Shown here: positions 2,137 to 18,376 of the stretch, one piece after another
Numbering within the stretch: position 1 is the stretch's first letter
Layout of the letters: the number at the start of each line of letters is the position of its first letter
Assembly (NCBI GenBank): GCA_028285285.1
Contig: JANQPW010000048.1
Coordinates: forward strand, 1-29,006
Length of the DNA stretch: 29,006 nt
Source of the DNA: Silvanigrellales bacterium
GTDB lineage: Bacteria > Bdellovibrionota_B > Oligoflexia > Silvanigrellales > Silvanigrellaceae
Reading direction: 5' to 3'
Translations under genes and position numbers: made by a program
Notes under the pieces: model-generated
The model's input: the letters and a program-made list of their open reading frames with translations, nothing else
Database searches by the model: none
Told to the model about the DNA's origin: nothing

Positions 2137-2784
2137 GTGACCACCGGAGGCGTCGTGTCTGTATCTGCGACTGTTCGAAAAGAAGATTCGACCTGTGTGG
2201 AGCGGATGGCGATCGGAGAGTTTCGCCGGCTTTTTTCGGATCCTGCCCATCCAGTTGTGGAGGAGGTCATTGCTGGCCAAACGTTTATCTGTCCTTCTGC
2301 ATCTGTGCTTCCCCAAGTGCGAGACCTCATTTCCCTGTTCAGAATGGCCAGCCATTCCTTCAGTCGACATGAAGATGACTCGTCTTCACCGCTGAAAAAA
2401 CTCCTTGAGAAGCCGTTTGAAACGCCCTTTGAGTTCCATTTGAGTGCTTTGCCGAAAGGTGAATTCTGCTTTAAGTTGAGCACTCCAAGTTACTTTAGAA
2501 TGTTCTGTGCGATGTCTGCCTGTTTACTGACAGCTTGTAATTTCCGATTTGTGAGCTTTAGAGCTCTTGAGCTTTGCGAAGGCTCAGCGGCCAGCTCAGA
2601 CTATGTGAAATTTGCGTCTGCTGTGCAAAAGCACACAGAAGATCGCGGCAAGTCAGAACCAGCCATTCAGCCCGAAAAACACGTCAATGTGGATCGGAGC
2701 GGTTTCGACCACTTTTTAGAAGAGTTTTTGCACAACTACTTGAGCTCTTCTGTGTTGACTTTGACCTATTCCTCAGAGACCTGA
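2137..2784 (+). CDS. Hypothetical protein
   Basis: 215-codon ORF, 20 bp downstream of the previous gene, convergent with the CoA ligase; alternative start ATG 2206 after GGAG. Confidence 0.55.
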   Translation: MTTGGVVSVSATVRKEDSTCVERMAIGEFRRLFSDPAHPVVEEVIAGQTFICPSASVLPQVRDLISLFRMASHSFSRHEDDSSSPLKKLLEKPFETPFEFHLSALPKGEFCFKLSTPSYFRMFCAMSACLLTACNFRFVSFRALELCEGSAASSDYVKFASAVQKHTEDRGKSEPAIQPEKHVNVDRSGFDHFLEEFLHNYLSSSVLTLTYSSET

Positions 2785-2810
2785 GCGTCATTTCGTTTGA
2801 CTCTGAGTTT

Positions 2811-4157
2811 TCAGCAGGCCGTGCGGAGAAAATCCGAAATGGACTTTGCTCGGCTTCTTTCGCAGGCGAGCCAAAACGCTTCTTCAAACCCGTAGGTTGT
2901 GGTGTAACGTATTTTGTGATCCACGGATCGATTCGTTTTCCTACGAATCAACTGCTCAAGGCGGAGACGATCCTGTTTCTGTGGTGGGTAACCATAGAGA
3001 CACTCCACAGCACCATTGCGTGCACAAAGCGCGAATGGGGGCAAAGAAGAAAGGCTCTGCGCCGCCTGATTCGCAAACTGGTCAAGGCTCAACCACTCAC
3101 CTGAGGCATCTTTGATCATCAGGCCTTCGCGCCCGAGAATGTGAATTCTCTCGCCCTCACGTTCTGCCCAATCGCCCGTGGAGTACCAGCCTTCGTGTTT
3201 GGTTCCACTAGTGAGATCAAGGAACTCTGCGCAGTTTTCAAGCTTGAGCTGGAGGATTCCACCCTTTTCTGGCACTTGAATCTGCAAATGAGGGAGGATC
3301 TTCCCGGCGAGCAAAACCCCAGGTCCTGCTTCGGTCAAACCATACCCTTCCACAAGGCTCCCAAACCGTTTTTCAGCTTCCTTCGCAACACTGTCAGAGA
3401 GCTGTGCACCGCCGGTGTGAACAATCATGTTCTTAAAATGAGCCGACTGAGGAAGCAGTCGGCAGAGCAACTCTATCTGCCGTGGCACGAGTGCAATGTG
3501 AGAGAATTTATTTCCGTGATTCAGCAGCGCCCAACGGAGGTCTTGCAGACTCCTTGAGGTTGAAAACACGAGTCTTTGGTGTGTCCAAAGCCCAAGAAGA
3601 ACATCAAGAACCAAACCAAATGCGTGCCACAGTGGCAGGCAAGAAAGTCTGAAGTTTCCACGTTGTTGAGTGCTTGTTTCCGGAAAAAGATTTTGGTTTG
3701 ATGCGTGCACCTGAAGCTGTTTCAGAATCACGCTTTGGGGAAGGAAGACCACTTTTCTAGATTCACTGCTTGTTCCACTCGTTAGGAGCACCAGCGAATA
3801 GGGCTCAGATGAAGAGGAGCGAGTTTCCGACAAAGTTTTAAAGTCACGGGTGATTCGGTCTTGCAATTGAGTGCAAGCTCCCGGAGCCATGGGCGCAAAA
3901 ACCTTCCCTTCGGCCAAACAGGCCAGAAAACCGCAAATTGCCCGAACGGGATCGCTTGCGTCAAGGAAGAAAATCGGGCTTTCTCGTTGCTTTTGAATGA
4001 GGGAAGTCAGTCTTTCAATCTCACGGGAGAGCTGCTCTGCGCAAACCGGCACAAGAGAGGAGTCTTCAATCAGGAAATGTGTTTCCTTTGCAAGCAGAGA
4101 TTCTCGCAAAGAAGTGTACAGGTCGCTCTGCGAGGAGAAATGTGGGGTTTCGTCCAT
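2811..4157 (-). CDS. AMP-binding acyl-CoA ligase, probable (hydroxy)cinnamate:CoA ligase for PYP chromophore attachment
   Basis: ANL motifs LLTSGTS, EGYGLTEAG, STGD, ILGR; 9 bp downstream of the ammonia-lyase, and the pair is divergent from pyp. Substrate assignment is from context. Confidence 0.8.
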   Translation of the reverse strand: MDETPHFSSQSDLYTSLRESLLAKETHFLIEDSSLVPVCAEQLSREIERLTSLIQKQRESPIFFLDASDPVRAICGFLACLAEGKVFAPMAPGACTQLQDRITRDFKTLSETRSSSSEPYSLVLLTSGTSSESRKVVFLPQSVILKQLQVHASNQNLFPETSTQQRGNFRLSCLPLWHAFGLVLDVLLGLWTHQRLVFSTSRSLQDLRWALLNHGNKFSHIALVPRQIELLCRLLPQSAHFKNMIVHTGGAQLSDSVAKEAEKRFGSLVEGYGLTEAGPGVLLAGKILPHLQIQVPEKGGILQLKLENCAEFLDLTSGTKHEGWYSTGDWAEREGERIHILGREGLMIKDASGEWLSLDQFANQAAQSLSSLPPFALCARNGAVECLYGYPPQKQDRLRLEQLIRRKTNRSVDHKIRYTTTYGFEEAFWLACERSRAKSISDFLRTAC

Positions 4158-4166
4158 ATGATCACC

Positions 4167-5588
4167 TTATTCCCAGGCACGTGGTGTTCCTGGCGTGTGG
4201 TTCTTCCAGGCTTCGAGAGACGAAGACACGGAGAACTCACCCTTGGACCTCATTGCACAGGCACGTGTTGCCACAAAGTGAGCGGCGTCTGAGACAACTT
4301 GAAGAAGGAGTTTGGACTCAGCAAATATGTTTAATTTCGACATTGTTGCTGGTAGCACATCTTGATTGTATGACTCGGCAGGGGCGCTCATGAGCGAGCT
4401 CGGTAGGTTCGTTCCCCGCAGCTGTTGCAAACAGGCGGAAACAAGCTGGTGCACCCCTTTCACATGATCCACGCCAATATGAGATTGGTGAACGCCACGA
4501 GTTCCTCTTTTGAGGTTTGGTGGCAGACCGTGGGAAAGCTCCGGCGTCACAATAAGGTGAATTTGCCGATCGAGGAGATCTGCAATTCTCAAGCAAGTGT
4601 CGCTCAGTAAGTCTACAGCAACGGCCAGTCTCGCAGTAAAGAAACGACCGCCGTGGTGAAAACCAGAATCGGTTACCACAGGGTTGTCGGCAATGTTCTC
4701 TGCTTCAGAGAGGACACGCTTTCGTGCGTCATCTAGGTTTTCTTTGGCGGCCGTTAAGATTTGTGGTGCACATCGTATGCTGTACCGTTCCTGCAAAGCG
4801 CTGGCTTCTTCTTCGGTGCTTGAAAGAGGAAAGTTTTCGCGGATGCGCTTCTCCGATTGGCGCAAAACTTGTGATATTTCCAGAAGGTTCCTGTCTTCAT
4901 GAGTTCCCGAAACCAGAAGGCTCGGCTCAAAGGCCTGGGAGTCAATAGCAAGGGCAACGGCATTTCGAGCTGTTATTTCAATAGCCTCTTGGAGAAATCT
5001 CTCAGTGAAGTTGGTGAGATGAACTGCAAGCGAGCACATCATTGAATTGGTGTTCACCAGGGCCAGTCCATCGCGTGGGCCGTAGGGCAATCCTCTCTTA
5101 AAGAGAGGCTGCAAAGCGTGACTCATTGATATGAGATCTCCGCTGGCTCCAAGGCTTCCCAAACATGGAACTGTGGGGAGTTTTTCCTCATTAGAAAAGG
5201 AAACAAGGGCATCGAAACTTTTTGGGTGAATACCAGAAAGGCCAAGTCCGAGCTTTTGGCACTGGAGGCGTATGCCTCTACGAACCACCTCCGATTCAAG
5301 GGGTTTCCCTTTGCCAACACTGAGAAACTCCATCAGCCCGTTTTGATGAGACTCCCAGTGTTGAGATTGTGCCGTTTCCAGAACATTGTGGCCAAAGTGA
5401 GTGTTGAGGCCGTAAACAGGGCTATTGTGAATGTGCTTTTCAAGTCTGTCGTAGCTCTCTTGAACTCTTTTTCTCTGAAGCGGGTGTGCAAACACGCTTG
5501 TTTCCGCACTTCCCAGTCGTACGACACTTGACCAGCTCAGTTTTCCTGCTGAGAGTTGGAGCTCTCGAATACTCGTCACCGCGCTCAT
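4167..5588 (-). CDS. MIO-dependent aromatic amino-acid ammonia-lyase (PAL/TAL family)
   Basis: VYGLNTHFG, GSLG-ASG-DL (MIO triad at 5139-5147), QERYSIRC, ADNP, GLPPNL, NQDV. Confidence 0.9.
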   Translation of the reverse strand: MSAVTSIRELQLSAGKLSWSSVVRLGSAETSVFAHPLQRKRVQESYDRLEKHIHNSPVYGLNTHFGHNVLETAQSQHWESHQNGLMEFLSVGKGKPLESEVVRRGIRLQCQKLGLGLSGIHPKSFDALVSFSNEEKLPTVPCLGSLGASGDLISMSHALQPLFKRGLPYGPRDGLALVNTNSMMCSLAVHLTNFTERFLQEAIEITARNAVALAIDSQAFEPSLLVSGTHEDRNLLEISQVLRQSEKRIRENFPLSSTEEEASALQERYSIRCAPQILTAAKENLDDARKRVLSEAENIADNPVVTDSGFHHGGRFFTARLAVAVDLLSDTCLRIADLLDRQIHLIVTPELSHGLPPNLKRGTRGVHQSHIGVDHVKGVHQLVSACLQQLRGTNLPSSLMSAPAESYNQDVLPATMSKLNIFAESKLLLQVVSDAAHFVATRACAMRSKGEFSVSSSLEAWKNHTPGTPRAWE

Positions 5589-5706
5589 TGGCCACCCGGG
5601 GAACTCATCCCATGACTTGTTGTTCTCTTCTTAGCCTACGGCGAGTGTAGATGGGCACCTCGGCAAACATTTCTTGTTTGAGAATTGGACGATGCTGGGG
5701 ATTGGC

Positions 5707-5733
5707 TAAAGTTTTCTTCGGAGAAGCCGTAAA
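5707..5733 (+). promoter_or_regulatory. Sigma28/FliA-like promoter of pyp
   Basis: TAAAGTTT-N11-GCCGTAAA versus extended consensus TAAAGTTT-N11-GCCGATAA; 49 bp before the pyp ATG. Confidence 0.6.
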
Positions 5734-5782
5734 GAGCTCTGACGTTGGAACCGCAAAAAATTGAATAATCTTGGAGGTCGAC

Positions 5783-6151
5783 ATGACATTTGTTTCATCG
5801 GATATTTTGGGCAAATTGGGAAGTCTTGACCGAGCGTCAGCTGATCGGGCCCCATTTGGAATTGTTAAGGTTGACAACGAAGGCAAGATTCTCCTGTACA
5901 ACAAGTGGGAATCTGAACTTGCTGGAATTTCGCCCGACTCTGCTGAAGGAAAGAACTTCTTTACTGATATTGCGCCGTGTACCAACAACAAGCTTGTGCG
6001 TGGGCGATTTCAATCGGGGATTGACTCCGGGAACTTGGACCTCGAAATCAACTACACGTTCACCTACAAAATGAGGCCAACCAATGTTGCCCTTCATTTG
6101 ATGCACGACAAGGTCACTTCTTCTAACTGGGTTTTCGTATCTAAGCGATAA
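5783..6151 (+). CDS. pyp: Photoactive yellow protein (short, stand-alone PAS)
   Basis: PFGIVKVD...LLYNKWES (Y42, E46)...GKNFFTDIAPCT (C69)...YTFTYKMRPT...WVFV; ATG 5783 preceded by GGAGG; next to chromophore-synthesis genes. Confidence 0.92.
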   Translation: MTFVSSDILGKLGSLDRASADRAPFGIVKVDNEGKILLYNKWESELAGISPDSAEGKNFFTDIAPCTNNKLVRGRFQSGIDSGNLDLEINYTFTYKMRPTNVALHLMHDKVTSSNWVFVSKR

Positions 6152-6163
6152 AAGGAGATTCCG

Positions 6164-6526
6164 ATGAGCGCGCAAGAGATCATACAATTGAGAGAAACGG
6201 TGTCCAATTTGGAAGAACAGCTTGTCTCTTTGTATGACCAGTTGAACGGCCAATCAATCGATGCGCTTCACACGACGATTGAGAGTCTCGAAGAGCAACT
6301 CATCTCTCTTTATCAGGAGCGTCAAGAGGAATCGGGTGTTGTTTTCTCTGAAACGGTGGAAAACCTCGAAGCCCAAGTGATTGCTCTCACTGATGAAAAG
6401 ATGGAGCTCGAGAGAAACGAAGGCCATTATCTCAGAGAGATTTCTTCTTTGAAGAACCGAGCCCGAGAGGTTGGTGCAGCCTTGTTTGAAGCAGCGATCT
6501 TCAATTCAACAGGGAAAGCTGCTTAG
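6164..6526 (+). CDS. Small acidic coiled-coil protein co-transcribed with pyp
   Basis: AGGAG RBS, 12 bp after the pyp stop; heptad-rich 120 aa. Confidence 0.8.
   Translation: MSAQEIIQLRETVSNLEEQLVSLYDQLNGQSIDALHTTIESLEEQLISLYQERQEESGVVFSETVENLEAQVIALTDEKMELERNEGHYLREISSLKNRAREVGAALFEAAIFNSTGKAA
6194..6391 (+). repeat. Three intragenic repeats at a 78-bp (26-aa) period
   Basis: ETVSNLEEQLVSLY (6194), TTIESLEEQLISLY (6272), ETVENLEAQVIALT (6350). Confidence 0.85.
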
Positions 6527-7793: not shown

Positions 7794-9149
7794 CTAGCTC
7801 GCTAGCTGCAGGTTGGCAAGCGTAGCAAGGGGAATAAAGAAGCAAAAAAGGGTTCCCTTCCCTTTGTTTGACTCCACTTCTATCCGTCCTCCAAGTTTGT
7901 CCAATTCTTCCTTCACAGCCGAAGTTCCAACTCCTCGCCCAGAAGAGGTGGTCACCTGATCCCCTGTGCTCACTCCCTCTGAGAACAGAGCCTCCACGAG
8001 ATCGTCTTGAGTTTCAGATGGAAGTCCAGCGCCTCGGGCTTTTTCTGCAATTTTCTCCCAGTTGATTCCTCGGCCATCATCAGAGATTCTCACCACGAGA
8101 TCGTTTTCAGTCTCTTCGGCCGAGAACTTGACCAGCCCATCAGGAGACTTCCCGAGAGATTCCCTTTCGCTGGGCTCTTCAAGTCCGTGGTCGACAATGT
8201 TTCGAAGGATGTGGATGAGGGAGACCCAAAACCCTTTGAGGCCATCTGGCACACGAAGAGACTCACTCTGCGTCTCGACTTTTAGTTTCTTGGCTGAGTT
8301 TTCGGCAATTCTTGTGAGCTGAGAGGCGAGCCTCTTGAAGCGTATTGCGACAGGATCCATGGGCAATCGAAGCACTGAAACGAGTATTTCGCTCCAGTCT
8401 GTGTTCGCCATTAAGTGCATCACAAGGTCGTCATATTCTTGGCGGGTCATGAGGATCATGTCATTGTTTTCCATGAGGCCCTGGAATATCTCGGTTGTCT
8501 CTTTCCACTGCTTTTGAATGTCGATGAGTTCGTCACGAATGCCTTCGGGACTACTTCCTTGGAGTTTGTCTTCAACCGTGTGAACCGTCTTGACGAGGCT
8601 TTGAATATTGTAGCAGCCTGAGTTGCCCTTCACGGTGTGCAGTGTTTTTGCAAGGGAGCTTTTGTCGCTGATCTCTCCGAGGTTTTCGATTAGTTCGTTT
8701 GTTTCTTTGAGGAAGGCTTTAGAAACCTCAATGTCTTTTAGTAAAGACTCGACGATCTGCTCCCGCTCAGAGTTTTGGGGTGTTGAGGAGGTCTCCAGTT
8801 TGAGGCGAACTGCATATCCTGCAAGGGTGCCTCCAGCGTTATCGGGCTGGAAATCGAGTGTGTAGCTTTGTTCACCCAACTTCGTGCGAGTGGGAAGCTC
8901 TGTGATCTGCATTCCGAAGAGTTCAAAATCTTGAACCCAGGTCGACAACAGAAACTTGAGTTGCTCTACTTCTGCGGGGTTCTCAGCAATCACGTCGGCG
9001 ATGTGGGTGTCGAGAAGGCCGCTCGACTCTGAAAAGCGTGATCTGAGGAGATGTTTTCCGCTCTCGCTCATGCGTTCGGTCAGGCGCCCGTCTGGCTCGC
9101 AGTAATAGATCACATCACCAAAAAGCTCGTAAAGCGAGGCGCTGGACAT
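7794..9149 (-). CDS. Soluble CheA-like histidine kinase (PAS-like N-terminus, Hpt, HATPase_c; no CheW domain)
   Basis: Hpt LHTVKGNSG; N-box HILRNIVDHGLE; ISDDGRGI; FSEGVST...SGRGVG; protein ends just after the ATPase domain; no hydrophobic transmembrane stretch seen. Confidence 0.88.
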   Translation of the reverse strand: MSSASLYELFGDVIYYCEPDGRLTERMSESGKHLLRSRFSESSGLLDTHIADVIAENPAEVEQLKFLLSTWVQDFELFGMQITELPTRTKLGEQSYTLDFQPDNAGGTLAGYAVRLKLETSSTPQNSEREQIVESLLKDIEVSKAFLKETNELIENLGEISDKSSLAKTLHTVKGNSGCYNIQSLVKTVHTVEDKLQGSSPEGIRDELIDIQKQWKETTEIFQGLMENNDMILMTRQEYDDLVMHLMANTDWSEILVSVLRLPMDPVAIRFKRLASQLTRIAENSAKKLKVETQSESLRVPDGLKGFWVSLIHILRNIVDHGLEEPSERESLGKSPDGLVKFSAEETENDLVVRISDDGRGINWEKIAEKARGAGLPSETQDDLVEALFSEGVSTGDQVTTSSGRGVGTSAVKEELDKLGGRIEVESNKGKGTLFCFFIPLATLANLQLAS

Positions 9150-9794: not shown

Positions 9795-10292
9795 ATGGCA
9801 CGATCAGCTTATTCAGAGATGCGAGAATCATTTGCCAAACAAAGAGAGGAGCGGGCTCGCAGGCTCGATGAGATGCTGCAGCGAAGCCGTTCCGCTCGTC
9901 GAACGGTTCGACCCGTTTCGTCACCTCCTTTGCCCTCGGCACCTGCGGCTCAGGAAAAGGCGCAGCCAGAAGAACAAGAAGAGGTTCTGGCTTCCCCGAA
10001 GGTGCAAGAGGAGGTTGTGTCTCCTTCTCACGAAGAAGTGCCTCAGTCTGGTAACCCAGATTCACAGACGACCACTCCAGCAGAGTTTGAGACCATTGAG
10101 GCTTTTCTGCAAGGTTTGCCGGGGCAGGGCTTTCAACTGACGGTGTCGGAGCGGGATAAGCTTGCAAAACTGATGGCAAACGCCCTTTATGTGCAGGTCT
10201 CTACAGGCTTTTTTGAGGCGTTTTGCAAAGACTATTTGCGCACCTACATTCGTGATCGTTTGCAATCAACAGAACCGAGTGGAGCAAATTGA
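9795..10292 (+). CDS. Hypothetical gas vesicle protein in the gvpC position
   Basis: ATG 9795 after GAGGT; Arg/Glu-rich N-terminal helix, Pro/Glu-rich linker, helical C-terminus; stop overlaps the gvpN start. Confidence 0.7.
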   Translation: MARSAYSEMRESFAKQREERARRLDEMLQRSRSARRTVRPVSSPPLPSAPAAQEKAQPEEQEEVLASPKVQEEVVSPSHEEVPQSGNPDSQTTTPAEFETIEAFLQGLPGQGFQLTVSERDKLAKLMANALYVQVSTGFFEAFCKDYLRTYIRDRLQSTEPSGAN

Positions 10293-11359
10293 TGGCGGCA
10301 CCACATCAGAATCAACCCCTTTCGAATTCAGGCTCGAAACTTAACGAAGGGGCGCAAGACCATTCGGCACAAAACCCTTTGAACATTGCGGTTGACGTCG
10401 AGAGCCCAGACGTGTCTCAGCCAAATGTTCCCAGTCAATTGCAAGAAGATGAGGGTATCGTTTTTACGGAAGAAATCCGAGAAATCACCGAGCGTGCCTT
10501 AACTTATCTGGAGGCCTGCGATGCGGTCCATCTCTACGGGCCTCCTGGTTGTGGAAAAACCACCCTGGCATTGCGAATTGCAGCATCAATTGGTCAAAAA
10601 ATTGTGTTGATCCAAGGCAGCGCGGGGATGAGCCCAAATGATCTCGTGGGCCAGCGAAGCGGTTGGAACCGCAGCACTGTCGTTGACAACTTCATCCACT
10701 CGGTTAGTAAAGTTCAAGAAAGTACCCGTCTGGAATGGAAAGACAGCCACCTTTTTCGGGCCATAAAAAATGGCTACACAGTGGTCTACGATGAGTTCAA
10801 TCGGGCATCTCCAGAGGTGAACAATGTGCTCCTTTCCGTTTTGTCCGAGGGCATTCTGTTCACCCCGCATTCGGATGGTGGTTCCACAGAACCCTTTGTG
10901 AGGATCCATCCCAATTTTCGGATCATTTTCACATCCAATCCAGAAGACTATGCAGGGGTGCATTCCACGTCAGATGCTCTTTGCGACCGCTTTGTGAGTA
11001 TTAACGTGAGCCGTTATCGAGTTGAGACTGAAGCGGAGATCATCCGCATGAAGGGCGGTGTGGACTTTGCGGACGCTCTCACACTGGCTCAGGTCGGGAA
11101 AAAGATCCGCGAGAGCATTGGTCTACGACACAATTGGCCGAGCCTGAGGTCACTCATTTCCATCGCTACCGTGTTGCGCTTGCGAGGAGGCCGTGCCCGA
11201 CCTGGGGACGAGGTCTTTCGCTGGGCGATATCCGACATTTTTAATCCCGATCAACTCAAACCTGTTCGACAGGGAGACGAGGTTCTCCGAAAAAAAGTTG
11301 AAAACATCATTCACAAACTCTGCAAAACAGAGGTTTCTGGGGGAGAGTCTGCGGCATGA
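10292..11359 (+). CDS. gvpN: Gas vesicle AAA+ ATPase GvpN
   Basis: GPPGCGKTT, TVVDNFIHSV, YDEFNRASPEVNNVLLSVL, HPNFRIIFTSNPEDYAGVH. Confidence 0.95.
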   Translation: MAAPHQNQPLSNSGSKLNEGAQDHSAQNPLNIAVDVESPDVSQPNVPSQLQEDEGIVFTEEIREITERALTYLEACDAVHLYGPPGCGKTTLALRIAASIGQKIVLIQGSAGMSPNDLVGQRSGWNRSTVVDNFIHSVSKVQESTRLEWKDSHLFRAIKNGYTVVYDEFNRASPEVNNVLLSVLSEGILFTPHSDGGSTEPFVRIHPNFRIIFTSNPEDYAGVHSTSDALCDRFVSINVSRYRVETEAEIIRMKGGVDFADALTLAQVGKKIRESIGLRHNWPSLRSLISIATVLRLRGGRARPGDEVFRWAISDIFNPDQLKPVRQGDEVLRKKVENIIHKLCKTEVSGGESAA

Positions 11360-11697
11360 GTGCTGAGCGGAAGCGCATCTCCCGGCAACCTGCGCCGGCT
11401 CGATGTCAGGAAATTGCGCGTAACCGCTTTACTCTTGCGAATCTTGAGCTCATCAAGGCGCGACTTTTGAAAGACAGGCAGAAAACCCTTAAGCGGCTCA
11501 ACGACATTGAAAATGAGATTCTGCGCATCCTTCGAAAACAGGATGCACTCGAAGGCCACATTGAGGAATTGAGCCCGTCTGCACAAAGAAACGATGAGTC
11601 CTCTTCCCATTCTGAAGCCTCTCAGGCACAGAACTCGCGACAAACCAATGTTGACCGCATCACAGGCGGCCTTCTCACATCAGTAAAAGACAGGTGA
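11356..11697 (+). CDS. Small coiled-coil gas vesicle accessory protein (GvpV-like)
   Basis: ATGA overlap with gvpN; LANLELIKARLLKDRQKTLKRLNDIENEI resembles, from memory, Serratia GvpV, which also follows gvpN. Confidence 0.6.
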   Translation: MSAERKRISRQPAPARCQEIARNRFTLANLELIKARLLKDRQKTLKRLNDIENEILRILRKQDALEGHIEELSPSAQRNDESSSHSEASQAQNSRQTNVDRITGGLLTSVKDR

Positions 11698-11714
11698 CAG
11701 AGTCAGGAGAGTTC

Positions 11715-13550
11715 ATGCCGGAATTCAAAGGGCTTCACCAACTCCTCGAAATCGCAAAAGAGCTTGAAGAACGCCTTGACAAGGGCGGAGCCGTCTTTGA
11801 GTCGGGGGTTCAGACAGGGAGGGCCGGCGGTAGGGGAGGCACAGCCCCCAAGTTCGGTTTGAGGAATGAGGGCTCCCGTGACCTTCATCGGAGAAGAAGG
11901 GAGTCCCCGCGCCCCTCTTCCGTTGAGAAACCTCGGAGTGGGAAGCAGGAGCCAAACCTGCGAGTTGAGCCGAGCAACCAAGAGCACATGGGGGAACACT
12001 ACCAAGACCTGGTTGAACTCATGAGCTTGGCATTGGTACATGGTAACAAGCTGAGATCCATGGGTATTAAACCCACACGGGGTCTTCTTTTGTCGGGACC
12101 TCCCGGAACCGGAAAAACCATGGCAGCACGTGAGCTTGCCAAACAGCTCAATTGCACATTCCTTTCCATTAGTGGCCCAGAAGTGATGTCAAAACACTAC
12201 GGCGAGCCCGAAGCCAAGCTCCGATCAATCTTTGAGGAAGCGCGCCAGCTTGCGCCTGCAGTGATCTTTATCGATGAAATTGATAGCATTGCACCCCAGC
12301 GAGACAAGGTTGAAGGTGAAGTGGAAAAGCGGCTTGTGGCGCAGCTCCTGGCTTTGATGGATGGAGTTCATCAAAGCAATGAAAATTGGATTGTGCTAGC
12401 CACAACAAATGCACCTTCCCGGCTTGATCCAGCACTCAGAAGGGCTGGGAGATTTGACACAGAGATTTCGTTTAAGTCTCCAGATGAGAAACAGCGAGTT
12501 GCTATCCTGCGTCACCTGACTTCTTCAATAGAGGTTTCGCCAGGTGTTTCTTTTGAGGAAATTGCCCTGAAAACAGAGGGTTTTGTTGGCTCAGACCTTT
12601 CTGCATTGTGCCAAAGTGCAACGTTTGCGGCCATCAAGCGGGTTCACCCTGATGGAGTTTCTCACCTTCGAGAGCTCAGTGACGTCACACTCAATGCTGA
12701 AGACTTTGTTCGCGCGCTTTCAGAGGTGAGTCCCAGTATACTGCGGGGTCATCTTGTTGAGGTTCCATCCATTGGTTGGGACGACATAGGTGGAAACGAA
12801 GAGATTAAGTCCAGGCTTCAGGAAACCGTGGGTGCCTATTTTCATCACAAGGAGCTCTACCGCAAGGCTGGTGTGCAGCCTCCTCGAGGGGCCGTTCTTT
12901 ACGGACCTCCCGGAACAGGAAAAACGCTTCTTGCCAGAGCCGTAGCTCACCAGGTTGGTGCAAAGTTCATGGTCGTCAATGGGCCAGAGCTGGTCAGCAG
13001 GTGGATTGGAGACACAGAGGATCGCATCCGAGAGCTGTTTCAGCAAGCCAGAGAGGCTAGTCCCTGCGTTTTGTTCTTTGATGAGATCGATGCATTAGCC
13101 CCTTCGAGGGGAAGCTACGTTGGTGACTCCGGTGTGACAGACAGAGCTGTTGCTCAGCTGCTCACCGAAATTGACGGACTCAGTTCGTCTCGGGAAATTC
13201 TCATCGTAGCCGCAACAAATCGGCTTGAACTCCTCGACCAGGCTCTGCTTCGGGCCGGCCGCTTGGAATTGCACATCAGGGTGCCTCCACCTAGTCTGGA
13301 AGGTCGGAAGTCGATTCTTAAAATAAAGACAGCAATGAAACCACTTGTCGACGTTGATCTGGAACACTATGCGGTCGAATGCGAGGGTTGGACAGGGGCC
13401 GAGTTGGAGCAGCTTGTTACGGAGGCGTCACTCGGCGCCATACGTAGGCAAACTCGTCAAAGCTCGATTGACTTGGATGGTTTTAAGATTGAGCAACAAG
13501 ACTTTGACACCGCTTTTGCTGGGCTTGTAGCGATGAAGAAGGCCACCTAA
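11715..13550 (+). CDS. CDC48/p97-like double AAA+ ATPase lacking the CDC48 N-domain
   Basis: Two Walker A (GPPGTGKT) and two Walker B (FIDEID, FFDEID) motifs, ALRRAGRFD, ALLRAGRL. Start either ATG 11715 (CAGGAG RBS) or GTG 11694. Confidence 0.9.
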   Translation: MPEFKGLHQLLEIAKELEERLDKGGAVFESGVQTGRAGGRGGTAPKFGLRNEGSRDLHRRRRESPRPSSVEKPRSGKQEPNLRVEPSNQEHMGEHYQDLVELMSLALVHGNKLRSMGIKPTRGLLLSGPPGTGKTMAARELAKQLNCTFLSISGPEVMSKHYGEPEAKLRSIFEEARQLAPAVIFIDEIDSIAPQRDKVEGEVEKRLVAQLLALMDGVHQSNENWIVLATTNAPSRLDPALRRAGRFDTEISFKSPDEKQRVAILRHLTSSIEVSPGVSFEEIALKTEGFVGSDLSALCQSATFAAIKRVHPDGVSHLRELSDVTLNAEDFVRALSEVSPSILRGHLVEVPSIGWDDIGGNEEIKSRLQETVGAYFHHKELYRKAGVQPPRGAVLYGPPGTGKTLLARAVAHQVGAKFMVVNGPELVSRWIGDTEDRIRELFQQAREASPCVLFFDEIDALAPSRGSYVGDSGVTDRAVAQLLTEIDGLSSSREILIVAATNRLELLDQALLRAGRLELHIRVPPPSLEGRKSILKIKTAMKPLVDVDLEHYAVECEGWTGAELEQLVTEASLGAIRRQTRQSSIDLDGFKIEQQDFDTAFAGLVAMKKAT

Positions 13551-13594
13551 GGCCCGCTGACAAAGACCCCAAAGGACCAAGAAAGAAGGTTCAA

Positions 13595-14386
13595 ATGACC
13601 GAAGCCATTCAGCTCAACCCTGGGTTTTACATCTATGCAATAGCTCTCGGGGATGTTGCTATTGACTACGGACCCGTTGGGTTGAGGAGTTTTGAGGTCA
13701 CGAGTTTTTCCAGTGAGGGCCTCACGGCAATTGTGAGTAAATGCCCTGGCCACAAGATTCGTCCTGAGCGCAGAAATCTAAAAGCCCACCATGAAGTTTT
13801 GAAGCGTCTCGTTGCCGATCACGCTATTCTTCCAATGGGGTTTGGGTTGTGTGCTCCTTCTGAACAGTCGCTTTGTGGGCTCTTGAGCGACAACGCAGAA
13901 AAGCTGAAAAAAAACCTGGAAGCGATTGAGGGCTGCCGGGAATGGGGAGTGACGGTCAAGCTTGCAAATGGGGACCCTGCGCAGTGGATACTGGAGGTTG
14001 ATCCGGAGCTAGAAGAAAAGCGTAACGAGATCTTGCAATCTGGACACCAAATGTCGCGCGACGACCGGATGAATTTCGGGCAGCAGATCGCCCGTCAACT
14101 GGAGCAGCAGAGAGCCGCCTATGAGCTTGAAGTTCGAAAGTCGCTTGAGTCATGTTGTCGAGAGGTGCGCACCATTGACCTTAAGGCAGATGCTGAAATC
14201 TGCGGCTTTGCACTTCTTGTTGAGAAAGAAAATGAAGCCAAACTAGAAGAGAAAATCAGTGCCATGGCAGCGGGTCTTCCGGAAGCATTTGCTGTCTCTT
14301 TTTCAGGCCCTTGGGCGGCTCACAACTTTGTCGAAGTCCAAATGGATGCCAGCGCTCTTGAAGCGCAGGAGGGGGAGTCATCATGA
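13595..14386 (+). CDS. gvpF: GvpL/GvpF-family gas vesicle protein
   Basis: YIYAI, LKAHHEVL, ILPMGFG, SGPWAAHNFV; immediately before gvpG. Confidence 0.88.
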   Translation: MTEAIQLNPGFYIYAIALGDVAIDYGPVGLRSFEVTSFSSEGLTAIVSKCPGHKIRPERRNLKAHHEVLKRLVADHAILPMGFGLCAPSEQSLCGLLSDNAEKLKKNLEAIEGCREWGVTVKLANGDPAQWILEVDPELEEKRNEILQSGHQMSRDDRMNFGQQIARQLEQQRAAYELEVRKSLESCCREVRTIDLKADAEICGFALLVEKENEAKLEEKISAMAAGLPEAFAVSFSGPWAAHNFVEVQMDASALEAQEGESS

Positions 14387-14616
14387 TCGTTGTTGATAGT
14401 GTTCTCCTATTCCCGATGAAAGGTCTCCTCTGGCTAGCCGGCAAGATCAACGAGTCGGTGGCGCAGGATACAAAAGACCAAATCACAGAGGTCAAAAACA
14501 GGTTGTCGGAGATCTACTTGCTGGTTGAAACAGGTCAAATGAGTGAAGAAGAGTTTGACAAGCAGGAGTCTCAGCTCTTGGAAAAGTTAGATGAGCTTGA
14601 AGGGAGCTCTGATTGA
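14383..14616 (+). CDS. gvpG: Gas vesicle protein GvpG
   Basis: LLFPMKGLLWLAGKI...ETGQMSEEEFDKQESQLLEKLD; ATGA overlap with gvpF. Confidence 0.88.
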   Translation: MIVVDSVLLFPMKGLLWLAGKINESVAQDTKDQITEVKNRLSEIYLLVETGQMSEEEFDKQESQLLEKLDELEGSSD

Positions 14617-16610
14617 CTGATCGGGAACAAGCTCCGTTCAGTGCCGAAAAACTCAGAAGTAAGATCCTTGTGTTTTGCGGCAAAGGGGGGGTTGGAAAGA
14701 CCACTGCAGCGACTGCTGTGTCAAATCATCTTGCTCAGCACGGGGCCTCCGTTCTGCTTGTGAGCTTTGATCCTGCACACTCCGTGCAGGATAGGCTCAA
14801 GGGCGTTCACTATGAGTCTGCACGCTTGCAGACCCTCGAGTTTAACGCTTCCACTGAACTCGAGAGCTTCAAAGAGAAGTGGTTAGAAACAATCGAATAT
14901 GTTGCGGAACATGGGACCTTTTTTGAAAGGCAAGATGTTCAGGAGCTCTTTTCCCTTTCATTTCCGGGAATGGACGAGATGCTTGCATTTCTTTACCTTG
15001 GCCGCGCAATTGAAGAACTGAATGAAGGCGCTTACGACACTATCTGCATTGATACCGCTCCCACGGGCCATCTTCTAACTCTCCTTAAAGCAGAGGAAAC
15101 ACTCCTCCGGTGGTTTTCGACCTTTGGGAGCCTTCTTGGTAAAGAAGAGGAAATGTTTGCGCGATTTGGAAATCGAGGAAATTCGGCTCAGAAGTACCAG
15201 TCTGGGGCGTCAATTCAGATAGAGCAGCAAATTCATGATATTCAGCAAACCGGGGAGTGGCTTCATCGAAAAGCAGAGTTTGTGCTGGTTTCCCAGGCGG
15301 CCCCAATTGTTGTTGACGAAACAATTCGGCTTTGGCTTCAGCTGAGTGAGCAGAAGTTCATCGTCCAGTCTTGTATTGTCAACGATTTTCCACGGCACGA
15401 AGAGGGTTGTTCTCTTTGTCACTCAAATTTTGTTGAGGCAAACACGGAGGCCGAGAGACTTATGTCGGCCTTAGGAGCAGACTTGTCGTTCTTCATTCAA
15501 GCTTCTGGCGCTGCCGACAAGGGAGAGTTTGTTGAGAACTACGTGTCTCACCTCTTAGGCCCGCTCGACCATTCCGCTGAACGGAAATCCGCTGCCGTAC
15601 AAAAGAAACAAGTCCACGACTCTCGCGATGATCGAGTTGAGCTTTGCCACCGTCAGCTCTTTTTGTCGGTTGGTAAGGGGGGAGTTGGCAAAACGAGTTG
15701 GGCTGCTGCCATTGCCGTTGCCCTCGCGCAAAGTGAGGCAGGCCCATCTGTCCTTGTTATTTCGACCGATCCTGCCCACTCACTTGGAGATAGGTTTGGC
15801 GTTGCTTTGGGGAAGAAGCCTCAAACTCTGGAGTTTGAATTTAGTAGTGCAAGCGTCGATGCAATGGAAGTTGATCCCGCTCAGGAACTCGCTTCACTGA
15901 GGCAGAGCTTGGGTCGTCACATTGAAGAAGCATTCGGCGAGAAGTTGAACGGTTCGTCGTTTTCTCTGCGACATGACCAGGAGGCCATTCTTAGCCTTCT
16001 TGAGTTGACTCCCCCTGGCTTGGATGAGCTCATGGCACTGCTTGTTCTTTCAGATGCTTTTGAGCAGGGTTCTTACGATGCAATAGTTGTGGATTCTGCC
16101 CCCTCTGGCCACCTCGTGAGGCTTCTTTCAATGCCCGAAATCATCGAAGATTGGCTGAAGACGATCTTCTCAATCCTTCTCAAGTACAAAAATATTTTCT
16201 CTTCGCTTGGCCTCAATAAAGAGCTCTTTCTTCTCAAACGGAGAGTGAGGGCTCTTCGCGAGCTTATTCAAGATCCAACGCGATGTGGGGCAATCATGGT
16301 CACTCGGGCAACAGATATGTGCCTTGAGGAATGTCGTGATCTTCACAAAAATCTCCAAAAGCTTGGCACGGCGGTATCGGGTCTACTCATCAATCAGGTT
16401 CGTCACCGAGACTCCTGCAACATCTGTGATGACATGTTCAAAAGTGAATCACAAATCATTGACGCCTACCTGCAAGAGTTTGCGCCGCTGCAGCCTAAAG
16501 TTGTTCATAGTATCTATAGGAAAGACTGTGAACCAAAAACGAGCAAGGAGTGTTTCCTCATCGAAAAGCTGGTCGACCTTATCGAAATTCAGGGCGGCCA
16601 CAAGGGCTGA
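14613..16610 (+). CDS. Tandem ArsA/Get3 (TRC40)-family ATPase
   Basis: Two GKGGVGKT, (S/F/T)DPAHS and D(T/S)AP(T/S)GH motif sets; a CxxC in each half. Confidence 0.9.
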   Translation: MTDREQAPFSAEKLRSKILVFCGKGGVGKTTAATAVSNHLAQHGASVLLVSFDPAHSVQDRLKGVHYESARLQTLEFNASTELESFKEKWLETIEYVAEHGTFFERQDVQELFSLSFPGMDEMLAFLYLGRAIEELNEGAYDTICIDTAPTGHLLTLLKAEETLLRWFSTFGSLLGKEEEMFARFGNRGNSAQKYQSGASIQIEQQIHDIQQTGEWLHRKAEFVLVSQAAPIVVDETIRLWLQLSEQKFIVQSCIVNDFPRHEEGCSLCHSNFVEANTEAERLMSALGADLSFFIQASGAADKGEFVENYVSHLLGPLDHSAERKSAAVQKKQVHDSRDDRVELCHRQLFLSVGKGGVGKTSWAAAIAVALAQSEAGPSVLVISTDPAHSLGDRFGVALGKKPQTLEFEFSSASVDAMEVDPAQELASLRQSLGRHIEEAFGEKLNGSSFSLRHDQEAILSLLELTPPGLDELMALLVLSDAFEQGSYDAIVVDSAPSGHLVRLLSMPEIIEDWLKTIFSILLKYKNIFSSLGLNKELFLLKRRVRALRELIQDPTRCGAIMVTRATDMCLEECRDLHKNLQKLGTAVSGLLINQVRHRDSCNICDDMFKSESQIIDAYLQEFAPLQPKVVHSIYRKDCEPKTSKECFLIEKLVDLIEIQGGHKG

Positions 16611-16642
16611 AAAAGCTCTGCCATTTGAATGAGGAAGCCATT

Positions 16643-16885
16643 TTGAGCTCAGCAGAGAGAGGGAAGAAGATTGTGCAAGCGGAACAGAACTCTCTGCTGG
16701 ATGTCATCGATTCTGCCTTAGACACTGGAGTCGCAGCTCGTGGAGAAATCGTCTTGAGCGTTGCAGACATTGATCTTGTTTACATCAGTCTTGGTCTTGT
16801 GATTTCTGAGTTTGGCAAGCTCCAGAATGCCAGCACAACGCCAAAGAAACAGGAAGATTTGCCCCAGGGCGAGTCAGCAGTATGA
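16643..16885 (+). CDS. GvpA/J/S-family minor gas vesicle protein (GvpS/GvpM-like)
   Basis: SLLDVIDSALDTGVAARGEIVLSVADIDLVYISL; start uncertain (TTG 16643 after GAGGA, or GTG 16673). Confidence 0.8.
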   Translation: MSSAERGKKIVQAEQNSLLDVIDSALDTGVAARGEIVLSVADIDLVYISLGLVISEFGKLQNASTTPKKQEDLPQGESAV

Positions 16886-17160
16886 CCGACGCGAAGGATA
16901 CCCAAACTCGTGTTGATACAGAAAAGCTTGCAAATGGACTTGGTGGTTTAGCCCTGACAATTGTCAAGCTTCTGCATGAGTTGATGCAGCGGCAGGCGTT
17001 GAAGCGATATGAAAGAGGAGAGCTCAGCGAGGAGGAAATCGAGCGGGCTGGAAGGACTTTTCAAGCCCAGGCACAGGAATTGGCTCGGTTGTGCGATCTT
17101 TTTGGGGTCAAGGAAGAGGAGCTCAACCTCGACTTGGGACCGCTCGGCAAACTCATGTAG
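16882..17160 (+). CDS. gvpK: Gas vesicle protein GvpK
   Basis: GLALTIVKLLHELMQRQALKRYERGELSEEEIER...LNLDLGPLGKL. Confidence 0.93.
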   Translation: MTDAKDTQTRVDTEKLANGLGGLALTIVKLLHELMQRQALKRYERGELSEEEIERAGRTFQAQAQELARLCDLFGVKEEELNLDLGPLGKLM

Positions 17161-17180
17161 CAAACACTGGAGAAAGACCC

Positions 17181-17525
17181 ATGACGCATAAAACTGTGAC
17201 GACCTCAACCGGTGGTTCGAATCTTGTCGATGTGATCGAACGTGTGCTCGACAAAGGTATTGTTATTGCGGGTGATATCAAGGTCAATCTCGTGGACATT
17301 GAACTTCTGACCATTCAGATTCGTCTTGTCGTCTGTTCGGTAGACAAGGCGGTCGAAATGGGAATGGATTGGTGGAAAAATGGATCGAGCTTTCTTTCCA
17401 CAGATCAAAATGAAAAGGACGAGAAGAGTCTTGTTGAGAGAATTGAGCGTCTTGAGAGCTCAATGAGACAAGATCAGGCAGCAGTGGCGAGTGCGAAACC
17501 ATTTTTAGCTGATGCGCAGAGCTGA
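17181..17525 (+). CDS. gvpJ: Gas vesicle protein GvpJ
   Basis: NLVDVIERVLDKGIVIAGDIKVNLVDIELLTIQIRLVVCSVDKAVEMGMDWW; ATG 17181 after GGAGA. Confidence 0.88.
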   Translation: MTHKTVTTSTGGSNLVDVIERVLDKGIVIAGDIKVNLVDIELLTIQIRLVVCSVDKAVEMGMDWWKNGSSFLSTDQNEKDEKSLVERIERLESSMRQDQAAVASAKPFLADAQS

Positions 17526-17533
17526 GGTTAGCC

Positions 17534-18376
17534 ATGGAAAAACAAAGCGTTACTTCTCCCGTGTTGAAGTCTCCTCGCTTGGAGCGGGAACAAAGCCTGT
17601 GGATGCTCAAGAGTCTTGCGCTGACCTCCTCAAAGGACCAACGAGAGAAAATTGAGGTGGTGTCGCGTGAGTTGGGCCACTCGGTGTTTCCTTTTTCTTG
17701 CGGTTCCCAAATGTGTGGCTTGGTCATCTGCGCAGCTGAAGAAAGGCAGGAGTGGGTAAGAGACGACATCGATGAGCTTATGAAGAATATCGATTGGATT
17801 GCTCCCCGCCTGCAGCAACACGCAGGTGTCTGCAACACCATTCACAGCATCGCCCCTTCCATTCCCATCGGTTTTGGTAGCCTCTTTTCCTCGGTGGAGG
17901 CTATGACAAGCAAGGCTCAATCCGTTTTTTCTGGCCTTGATCAAAACAAGCTCTGGGAGCTCAGTGGACTTGAATGGGGTTTGACCGTGAAAAGAGCAGC
18001 AGCGACGGACACCGTTGCAACACCCAGAGAGTCTGCGGCTCACAACGCTGTTTCGGGCAGTTGCTATTTTCAGTCTTTGGCACGAAAAAAGAGACATCGG
18101 CAAAATGAGAGTGAGATAGCAGAAGACGTGCTAGATGGTGTGCGGAACATTCTTGCGAAGTGTGGATTTCCCACCAATTCTCTTTCAGTCAGAGAAGATT
18201 GGCAAAACGCAAAGTCGAAGGAGCGAGTGGTTGGTCGATTTGCGACGCTGGTGCCAAGAGACAATCAGAACTTTCGAACTGACTGCGCCCGAGCCTTCGA
18301 GGAACTCGCTCGTGAAAAGAGTTCATGCTTTCATTTTGAATGGAATGGTCCTTGGGCCCCGTTCAGCTTTGTGTGA
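17534..18376 (+). CDS. Second GvpL/GvpF-family protein
   Basis: WIAPRLQQHAGV, SIPIGFGSLF, EWGLTV, YFQSLARKK, NGPWAPFSFV. Confidence 0.82.
   Translation: MEKQSVTSPVLKSPRLEREQSLWMLKSLALTSSKDQREKIEVVSRELGHSVFPFSCGSQMCGLVICAAEERQEWVRDDIDELMKNIDWIAPRLQQHAGVCNTIHSIAPSIPIGFGSLFSSVEAMTSKAQSVFSGLDQNKLWELSGLEWGLTVKRAAATDTVATPRESAAHNAVSGSCYFQSLARKKRHRQNESEIAEDVLDGVRNILAKCGFPTNSLSVREDWQNAKSKERVVGRFATLVPRDNQNFRTDCARAFEELAREKSSCFHFEWNGPWAPFSFV

Follow-up and report, generated by a model that had tools for sequence, protein, structure and literature searches.

Photoactive yellow protein (PYP) and two enzymes that may supply its chromophore are encoded side by side on a contig of a Silvanigrellales bacterium (assembly GCA_028285285.1, contig JANQPW010000048.1), the whole 29,006-nucleotide stretch of which is referred to here as the window. 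The gene at 4167–5588 on the minus strand specifies a 473-amino-acid protein (P0001, hereafter the window lyase) belonging to the aromatic amino-acid ammonia-lyases that depend on the 4-methylideneimidazole-5-one (MIO) electrophile, with a score of 232.9 bits against PF00221 (cut-off 27.3). On the same strand, the gene for an AMP-binding acyl-CoA ligase (PF00501; 2811–4157), a candidate p-coumaroyl-CoA ligase, starts 9 bp past the lyase stop, and lyase and ligase are therefore probably co-transcribed. The PYP gene (5783–6151, plus strand) is divergent from the lyase gene, with 195 bp between them. A scan of positions 2600–6300 for promoters and terminators gave results at chance level.

The window PYP aligns without gaps to Halorhodospira PYP (E 1.5e-27) and keeps the chromophore residues Tyr42, Glu46, and Cys69, the first two as an earlier, sequence-only reading of this DNA had stated; Thr50 is replaced by Ala and Arg52 by Ile, and the score against TIGR02373 (120.7 bits) is under the cut-off of 143. 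It is the sole PYP in the genome (assembly 83% complete). The same reading saw in the lyase the specificity residues of a phenylalanine ammonia-lyase (PAL) and took as its lead inference that the enzyme may make cinnamate rather than the p-coumarate made by a tyrosine ammonia-lyase (TAL), listing among its alternatives a TAL that uses other determinants. That alternative is the best supported by our analysis, which offers Gln381 as a concrete candidate. The window lyase is, we propose, probably a TAL of a new, uncharacterized class in which the specificity determinants have been relocated.

Catalytic Residues of the Window Lyase

The catalytic set of the window lyase is complete, comprising Tyr59, Ala148-Ser149-Gly150, Asn179, Tyr269, Arg272, Asn408, and Gln409. 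The Ala148-Ser149-Gly150 precursor of the MIO electrophile (5139–5147, minus strand) is invariant in an alignment with the closest relatives, described below as clade A, and the lid-loop motif YGLNTHF (5394–5414, minus strand) contains the catalytic Tyr59 along with an unusual Asn62, where 41 of 45 relatives have His. With the catalytic set complete, the enzyme looks fit for catalysis, and its AlphaFold2 model (pLDDT 89, pTM 0.91) has as its top fold match the Rhodobacter sphaeroides TAL (RsTAL; PDB 2O6Y, Foldseek E 9e-23).

The possibility that the window lyase is decaying or re-purposed (inactive, or an aminomutase), the PYP chromophore then coming from the environment, draws on its long terminal branch (1.13), on a top identity of 44% to any protein in a search of 5.8 billion, and on Asn62. 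Many pyp operons are without a TAL gene and may take up p-coumarate (PMC12826048), which would fit such a supply. Against this, the open reading frame is intact with all catalytic residues kept, the AlphaFold2 model is confident, the gene is tightly coupled to that of the ligase by the 9-bp gap, and the cassette architecture is conserved among relatives; we regard this possibility as very improbable.

Family models place the protein within the superfamily and in none of its named classes. Every NCBIfam model stays under its cut-off (the top one at 175.7 bits versus 524), and those for histidine ammonia-lyases (HALs), PALs, TALs (FlxA, BagA), and aminomutases are all far under theirs. A phmmer search of the PDB with the single sequence returns as best match the PAL of Planctomyces brasiliensis (PbPAL, 9EQ5; E 6e-30); a profile of 45 clade sequences gives near-equal scores for a HAL (184.4 bits), RsTAL (182–184), AdmH (179), and PbPAL (174).

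The Selectivity Switch and Clade A

Substrate assignment in the aromatic ammonia-lyases, and the mining of databases for TALs, depend on a two-residue switch. Phe-Leu at this switch is the accepted PAL motif, and the exchange of His89 for Phe turns RsTAL into a PAL (PMC9321829, PMC5651878). The window lyase carries Phe88 (codon TTT, 5325–5327, minus strand), followed by Leu89, at the site of RsTAL His89 and of Phe137 in the parsley PAL (PcPAL): its segment HQNGLMEFLSVGKG aligns free of gaps with LQANLVHHLASGVG of RsTAL 2O6Y (phmmer, E 8e-26), pairing Phe88 with His89 and Leu89 with Leu90, and the 45-sequence profile gives the same register. The sequence-only reading was thus right to place Phe rather than His at the switch. 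The His89Phe variant of RsTAL (2O78, E 8e-27) slightly outscores the wild type against the window lyase.

A second site adduced in that reading, Glu405 (codon GAG, 4374–4376, minus strand), lies as described within AESYNQDV and corresponds to RsTAL Asn432 and PcPAL Glu484, the stretch PAESYNQDV pairing with STNAANQDV of RsTAL whether aligned pairwise or by profile. The accompanying generalization that TALs have Asn at this site holds for enzymes of the His-Leu type, such as RsTAL and the group B lyases considered below; it does not hold in general. Because a close relative of BagA/FevW (825 bits), which has a Tyr-His switch, carries Glu at the same position, Glu405 is not diagnostic of PAL or TAL, and we rejected it as a PAL marker. 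As in PALs, it pairs with Lys377.

The window lyase, with Phe88-Leu89 and Glu405 in place of His-Leu and Asn, thus lacks the signature of a Rhodobacter-type TAL, and its Phe-Leu pair is the PAL one. This leads to the reading that it is a genuine PAL whose cinnamate either serves as a UV-shifted PYP chromophore or is turned into p-coumarate by an unlinked hydroxylase. The match of Phe88-Leu89, Lys377, and Glu405 to PAL residues, including those of PbPAL, its top PDB match, argues for this reading, as do the higher score of the His89Phe variant and the presence in the genome of five P450 genes; none of the five is on this contig, and nothing points to an unlinked hydroxylase. The PAL model TIGR01226, at 89.8 bits, is far from its cut-off of 519.15, and considerations from the relatives, the pocket, and the PYPs, set out below, leave a PAL quite unlikely.

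The window lyase is one of a set of enzymes that share its departure from RsTAL. The search of 5.8 billion proteins yielded 44 relatives with E-values between 1e-98 and 1e-58 (34–44% identity, 394–504 amino acids), with a sharp gap in scores from E 1e-58 to 1e-38 below them, and a profile run exhaustively over 1.84 billion representatives found about 27 full-length clusters above 490 bits, the next match scoring 299. Approximately 77 sequences from Oligoflexia, Bdellovibrionota, Myxococcaceae, Erythrobacter, and Microbulbifer make up this group, which we call clade A. In the alignment of 45 members the switch residue is Tyr in 40, Phe in five, and His in none, and is followed in every case by Leu; the Glu405 site is Glu in 44 of 44 sequences. 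On a maximum likelihood tree of 95 rows (IQ-TREE quick, LG+G4), clade A has an SH-aLRT value of 100% and a long stem. It is a discrete lineage of aromatic ammonia-lyases that never uses the His89 switch. A wider sister set of proteins from metagenome-assembled genomes (MAGs) has the same signature of Tyr-Leu, Lys-Gly-x-His-Gln, and Glu.

Within this lineage Phe at position 88 is a repeated minority variant among Tyr-bearing enzymes, which speaks against a special PAL function of those that carry it. At least five changes between Tyr and Phe are needed on the tree, and the Tyr hydroxyl is therefore dispensable. The window lyase and its sister, from an Oligoflexales MAG, are both Phe-Leu sequences.

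Active TALs without His89 are known. BagA (Tyr-His) and FjTAL/FlxA (Ser-His) are such enzymes, as are the Tyr-His/Phe-His TALs of the PYP organism Idiomarina loihiensis and of Aeromonas, the last being active on tyrosine with slight activity on phenylalanine (PMC9321829, PMC5651878). These enzymes indicate that an ammonia-lyase can have Tyr or Phe at position 89 and still be specific for tyrosine, as would be so in clade A. All carry His at position 90, where clade A has Leu, and clade A is therefore not one of them; nor do the models for BagA- and FlxA-type TALs, which are separate lineages, come near their cut-offs (113–137 bits versus 700–1000; BagA_FevW, 112.9 versus 1000).

A HAL was also considered for the window lyase and rejected, because its switch is Phe-Leu and not Ser-His, because Asn-Gln and not Gln/Thr-Glu stands at the positions of RsTAL 435/436, and because a true HutH is encoded elsewhere in the genome. 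The score against the HAL model TIGR01225 is 160.4 bits (cut-off 539). The HutH gene, the only other PF00221 gene in the genome (627 bits, Ser-His switch; G000:C86:317-1693, locus L001), itself has Gly-Ala-Cys-Gly-Asp-Leu where the MIO forms, so that Ala-Cys-Gly replaces Ala-Ser-Gly.

The Aryl Pocket and Gln381

RsTAL, the enzyme of the PYP chromophore (2O6Y, 2O7B), shares with the window lyase the MIO fold, the catalytic Tyr, the Ala-Ser-Gly triad, Asn, Tyr/Arg, and Asn-Gln, and the two also have similar settings, with PYP and, here too, gas-vesicle genes. They are only about 24% identical, the window lyase being some 50 residues shorter, and they differ at several further positions: RsTAL His89 corresponds to Phe88, Asn432 to Glu405, Met405 to Lys377, Gln408 to His380, and Val409 to Gln381. 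After the catalytic Asn, RsTAL has Asn-Gly-Thr, as do other lyases, whereas the window lyase has Asn-Thr-Asn, a motif invariant in the 45 clade A sequences. PALs of the PbPAL and AvPAL/PcPAL type resemble the window lyase in the Phe-Leu switch, the Lys at site 377, and the Glu at site 405. They differ from it in the conserved Ile that they have in place of Gln381 and in their context, being tied to polyketide or fatty-acid genes where the window lyase is linked to PYP.

Gln381 closes the sequence Lys377-Gly-Val-His380-Gln381 (4446–4460, minus strand), which forms the first turn of a helix (residues 377–392) in the AlphaFold2 model. It aligns with RsTAL Val409 in both pairwise and profile comparisons and with the Ile of PbPAL, and a PDB search with residues 345–425 alone, although its matches were weak, again set it opposite Val409. 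We take Val409 and Met405 to be pocket residues of RsTAL, and the PcPAL counterpart of Gln381 to be Ile460, in agreement with the PbPAL alignment; the spacing of 24 residues from Gln381 to Glu405 is that from Ile460 to Glu484. Lys377, His380, and Gln381 are invariant across the 45-sequence alignment, and in the clade as a whole Lys377, His380, and Glu405 are fixed, as is Gln381 save in one lineage of the set of 95 (L030/P0126), which has Ile. Polar residues at 380 and 381 are unique to the clade A lineage.

In PcPAL, Ile460 is strongly conserved among PALs and contacts para and meta substituents, and its replacement by Val, Thr, or Ser leads to acceptance of p-methoxy-phenylalanine (PMC9226071, PMC7355458). 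The pocket of the window lyase, with Gln381 at this site beside His380, is not the fully hydrophobic one of a PAL, a break in a conserved position that counts against that function; the L030/P0126 lineage, with Phe-Leu at the switch and Ile at site 381, has by contrast a fully PAL-like pocket and lends the PAL reading some support. The near-invariant Gln381 is a plausible candidate for a hydrogen-bond partner of the tyrosine hydroxyl.

We therefore present the following as a hypothesis for the window lyase. As an active MIO-dependent ammonia-lyase, it would supply the PYP chromophore by turning L-tyrosine into p-coumarate, perhaps alongside some activity on phenylalanine, and the adjacent ligase would activate p-coumarate for attachment to Cys69 of PYP. 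Position 88, whether Tyr or Phe, would form a wall of the aryl pocket, and recognition of the phenol would fall to other residues that are fixed across the clade. Chief among these would be Gln381, which stands where PALs and TALs have a conserved hydrophobic Ile or Val and would face the para and meta positions of the ring; His380 and the Lys377-Glu405 pair may play a part as well.

The same polar residues could serve a different substrate. Clade A might act on some other ring-substituted aromatic amino acid, such as L-DOPA or a 3-substituted tyrosine, and give a non-canonical hydroxycinnamate, with the His380/Gln381 pocket reading a meta substituent. That these residues are unique to clade A and that PcPAL Ile460 also faces meta substituents are consistent with this. 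So is the case of Arabidopsis PAL3 (AtPAL3), which has Tyr at the switch and uses 3-carboxy-tyrosine, while plant PAL3-like enzymes with Tyr and Glu have negligible PAL or TAL activity; in PAL3, specificity depends jointly on the pocket positions that correspond to Ile460 and Glu484 (bioRxiv 10.64898/2026.09.15.751672). These enzymes share Tyr at the specificity site with about 90% of clade A, although theirs is a eukaryotic PAL scaffold, and PAL3 has Val and Ser where clade A has Gln and Glu. The lack of TAL activity in the PAL3-like enzymes is a caution against reading Tyr at the switch as the mark of a TAL. Two gene neighborhoods likewise favor a substituted substrate, with a TauD-type dioxygenase beside one member (L017) and a flavin halogenase/monooxygenase beside a lyase of the sister set (L093). 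We consider a substituted substrate unlikely: these PYPs have the same pocket as those that canonical TAL-type lyases serve, the PYP cassettes have no gene for making such a precursor, and tyrosine is the simplest substrate at hand in whatever host takes up the cassette.

Gene Neighborhoods and PYP Pockets

One scan of species-representative genomes gave 33 clade A loci, from Oligoflexus, Bdellovibrionota/Bacteriovoracaceae, Myxococcaceae, Erythrobacter/Porphyrobacter, Microbulbifer, and Spirochaetia. A pyp gene lies at most 8 kb from the lyase in 17 of them (tblastn), usually with a ligase gene too, and ligase homologs adjoin the lyase in most of the loci. Two Phe-Leu members other than the window lyase illustrate the range of contexts: one (P0013) belongs to an operon of coiled-coil protein, pyp, lyase, and ligase, and its PYP keeps Tyr42, Glu46, and Cys69; the other (P0030) is within an aryl-polyene/flexirubin-like cluster. 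The wider sister set is divided in the same manner, with two loci linked to PYP (L092, L094) and two in aryl-polyene clusters (L091, L093).

A second group of PYP-linked lyases, group B, from MAGs of Fimbriimonas/Armatimonadota and Sericytochromatia, provides a standard of comparison. These have the canonical signature of His-Leu, Asn at the 432 site, and Asn-Gly-Thr, and form a separate clade on the tree, but lie next to PYPs of the same subfamily and pocket: the 18 PYPs linked to clade A and the seven linked to group B form one subfamily and are alike at 16 chromophore-pocket positions, the exceptions being conservative exchanges and a small number of single substitutions. Tyr42 and Glu46 are kept in all 18 clade A-linked PYPs. 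Both PYPs linked to Phe-Leu lyases have these two residues, and their pockets match those of PYPs linked to canonical TAL-type lyases save at position 50 (Ala/Gly), an observation that tells against cinnamate as the product of the Phe-Leu enzymes. Since a cinnamate chromophore predicts relaxed constraint on the phenolate-binding residues and none is seen, both lyase types would deliver the same product; the shared pocket is the strongest argument that they do. No hydroxylase gene was found in the cassette of any PYP-bearing locus examined, a further point against the PAL reading.

The missing His is thus common to the whole, mostly PYP-linked clade, and the usual p-coumarate is therefore the most likely product, with tyrosine recognized in another way. 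The inference that the enzyme makes cinnamate becomes less likely in the light of the clade-wide loss of His, the interchange of Tyr and Phe, the shared PYP pocket, and the undiagnostic Glu405. It is also distinctly unlikely that the product of the whole clade defined by Tyr/Phe-Leu, His-Gln, and Glu is not p-coumarate but cinnamate or a cinnamate with other substituents.

Several points weigh against a tyrosine-specific enzyme with relocated determinants. The window lyase has the accepted PAL motif, and the title of PDB 2O78 records that His89Phe makes RsTAL a PAL; the known His-less TALs have a His at position 90 that clade A lacks; and AtPAL3 and the PAL3-like enzymes combine Tyr at the switch with other or negligible activities. 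The role proposed for Gln381 is argued from alignment and the PcPAL literature, and no characterized member of clade A was found in the literature searched. The long branch and Asn62 set the window lyase itself apart from its relatives. PYP, searched for with the window PYP as query, was not found in the genomes of Oligoflexus tunisiensis Shr3 and of two Microbulbifer species, M. variabilis ATCC 700307 and M. epialgicus, all of which have a clade A lyase in a different gene context.

If clade A does make p-coumarate, it would represent a further, structurally different way of recognizing tyrosine, in which the polar residue has shifted to the Ile460 site of the pocket, and would offer new TALs for producing p-coumarate. 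It would also explain the "strong divergence" reported for TALs in pyp operons, described as an obstacle to confident substrate annotation in a study that did not analyze the switch (PMC12826048). A TAL-mining screen retained only His-Leu, Tyr-His, Phe-His, Ser-His, and His-Gln sequences (PMC9321829), and clade A would therefore have been discarded or labeled as PAL. If, on the other hand, clade A makes something else, a sizeable branch of PYPs (Bdellovibrionota, Oligoflexia, Myxococcaceae, Erythrobacter) would hold a non-canonical chromophore despite Tyr42 and Glu46.

Other genes recur around the cassette. Directly beyond pyp in the window, a coiled-coil protein (6164–6526, plus strand) is a conserved candidate PYP partner, found immediately before or after pyp in many loci (homologs in L007, L010, L012, L013, L024, L028, and L033, and a 238-amino-acid version at L084:6760-7476). 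A CheA-like soluble kinase with Hpt and HATPase domains (7794–9149, minus strand) is found repeatedly, and in different phyla, close to the PYP/lyase/ligase cassette (L006, L008-L010, L012-L014, L036, L049, L092, L094), and both proteins are frequent in pyp-linked clade A loci. The cassette of the window is adjoined at 10289–18376 by genes of gas-vesicle type, identified from their translations only: AAA GvpN-like, GvpL/F-like, and ArsA-like genes and small GvpA-like open reading frames.

In cultured Oligoflexus tunisiensis Shr3, the clade A lyase has a Tyr-Leu switch and lies by a GGDEF protein and two proteins with no Pfam match (L005:5755-10616). M. variabilis ATCC 700307 has an apparent operon of clade A lyase, TauD/TfdA-family dioxygenase, and PaaK-like ligase (L017:7746-11462), flanked by a divergent LysR regulator. 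The aryl-polyene/flexirubin-like clusters of the sister set (L091:5057-12529, L093:2736-11472) encode ketosynthases, acyl carrier proteins, ApeI/ApeP-like proteins, and an AMP-ligase, and in L093 the flavin halogenase/monooxygenase gene comes directly after the lyase gene.

Lyase domains also occur as parts of larger proteins. In several group B genomes the lyase is fused to the ligase in one protein of approximately 940–970 amino acids; in two such fusions from Fimbriimonas/Armatimonadota MAGs (L037:6570-9479 and L043:3277-6081, both plus strand), the AMP-binding domain spans residues 53–300 and the lyase domain 479–949, with a PYP gene 2–4 kb upstream. A protein of 2535 amino acids (P0145), presumably a megasynthase fusion, contains a Phe-Leu lyase domain at residues 1421–1882 that scores 299 bits against the clade profile.

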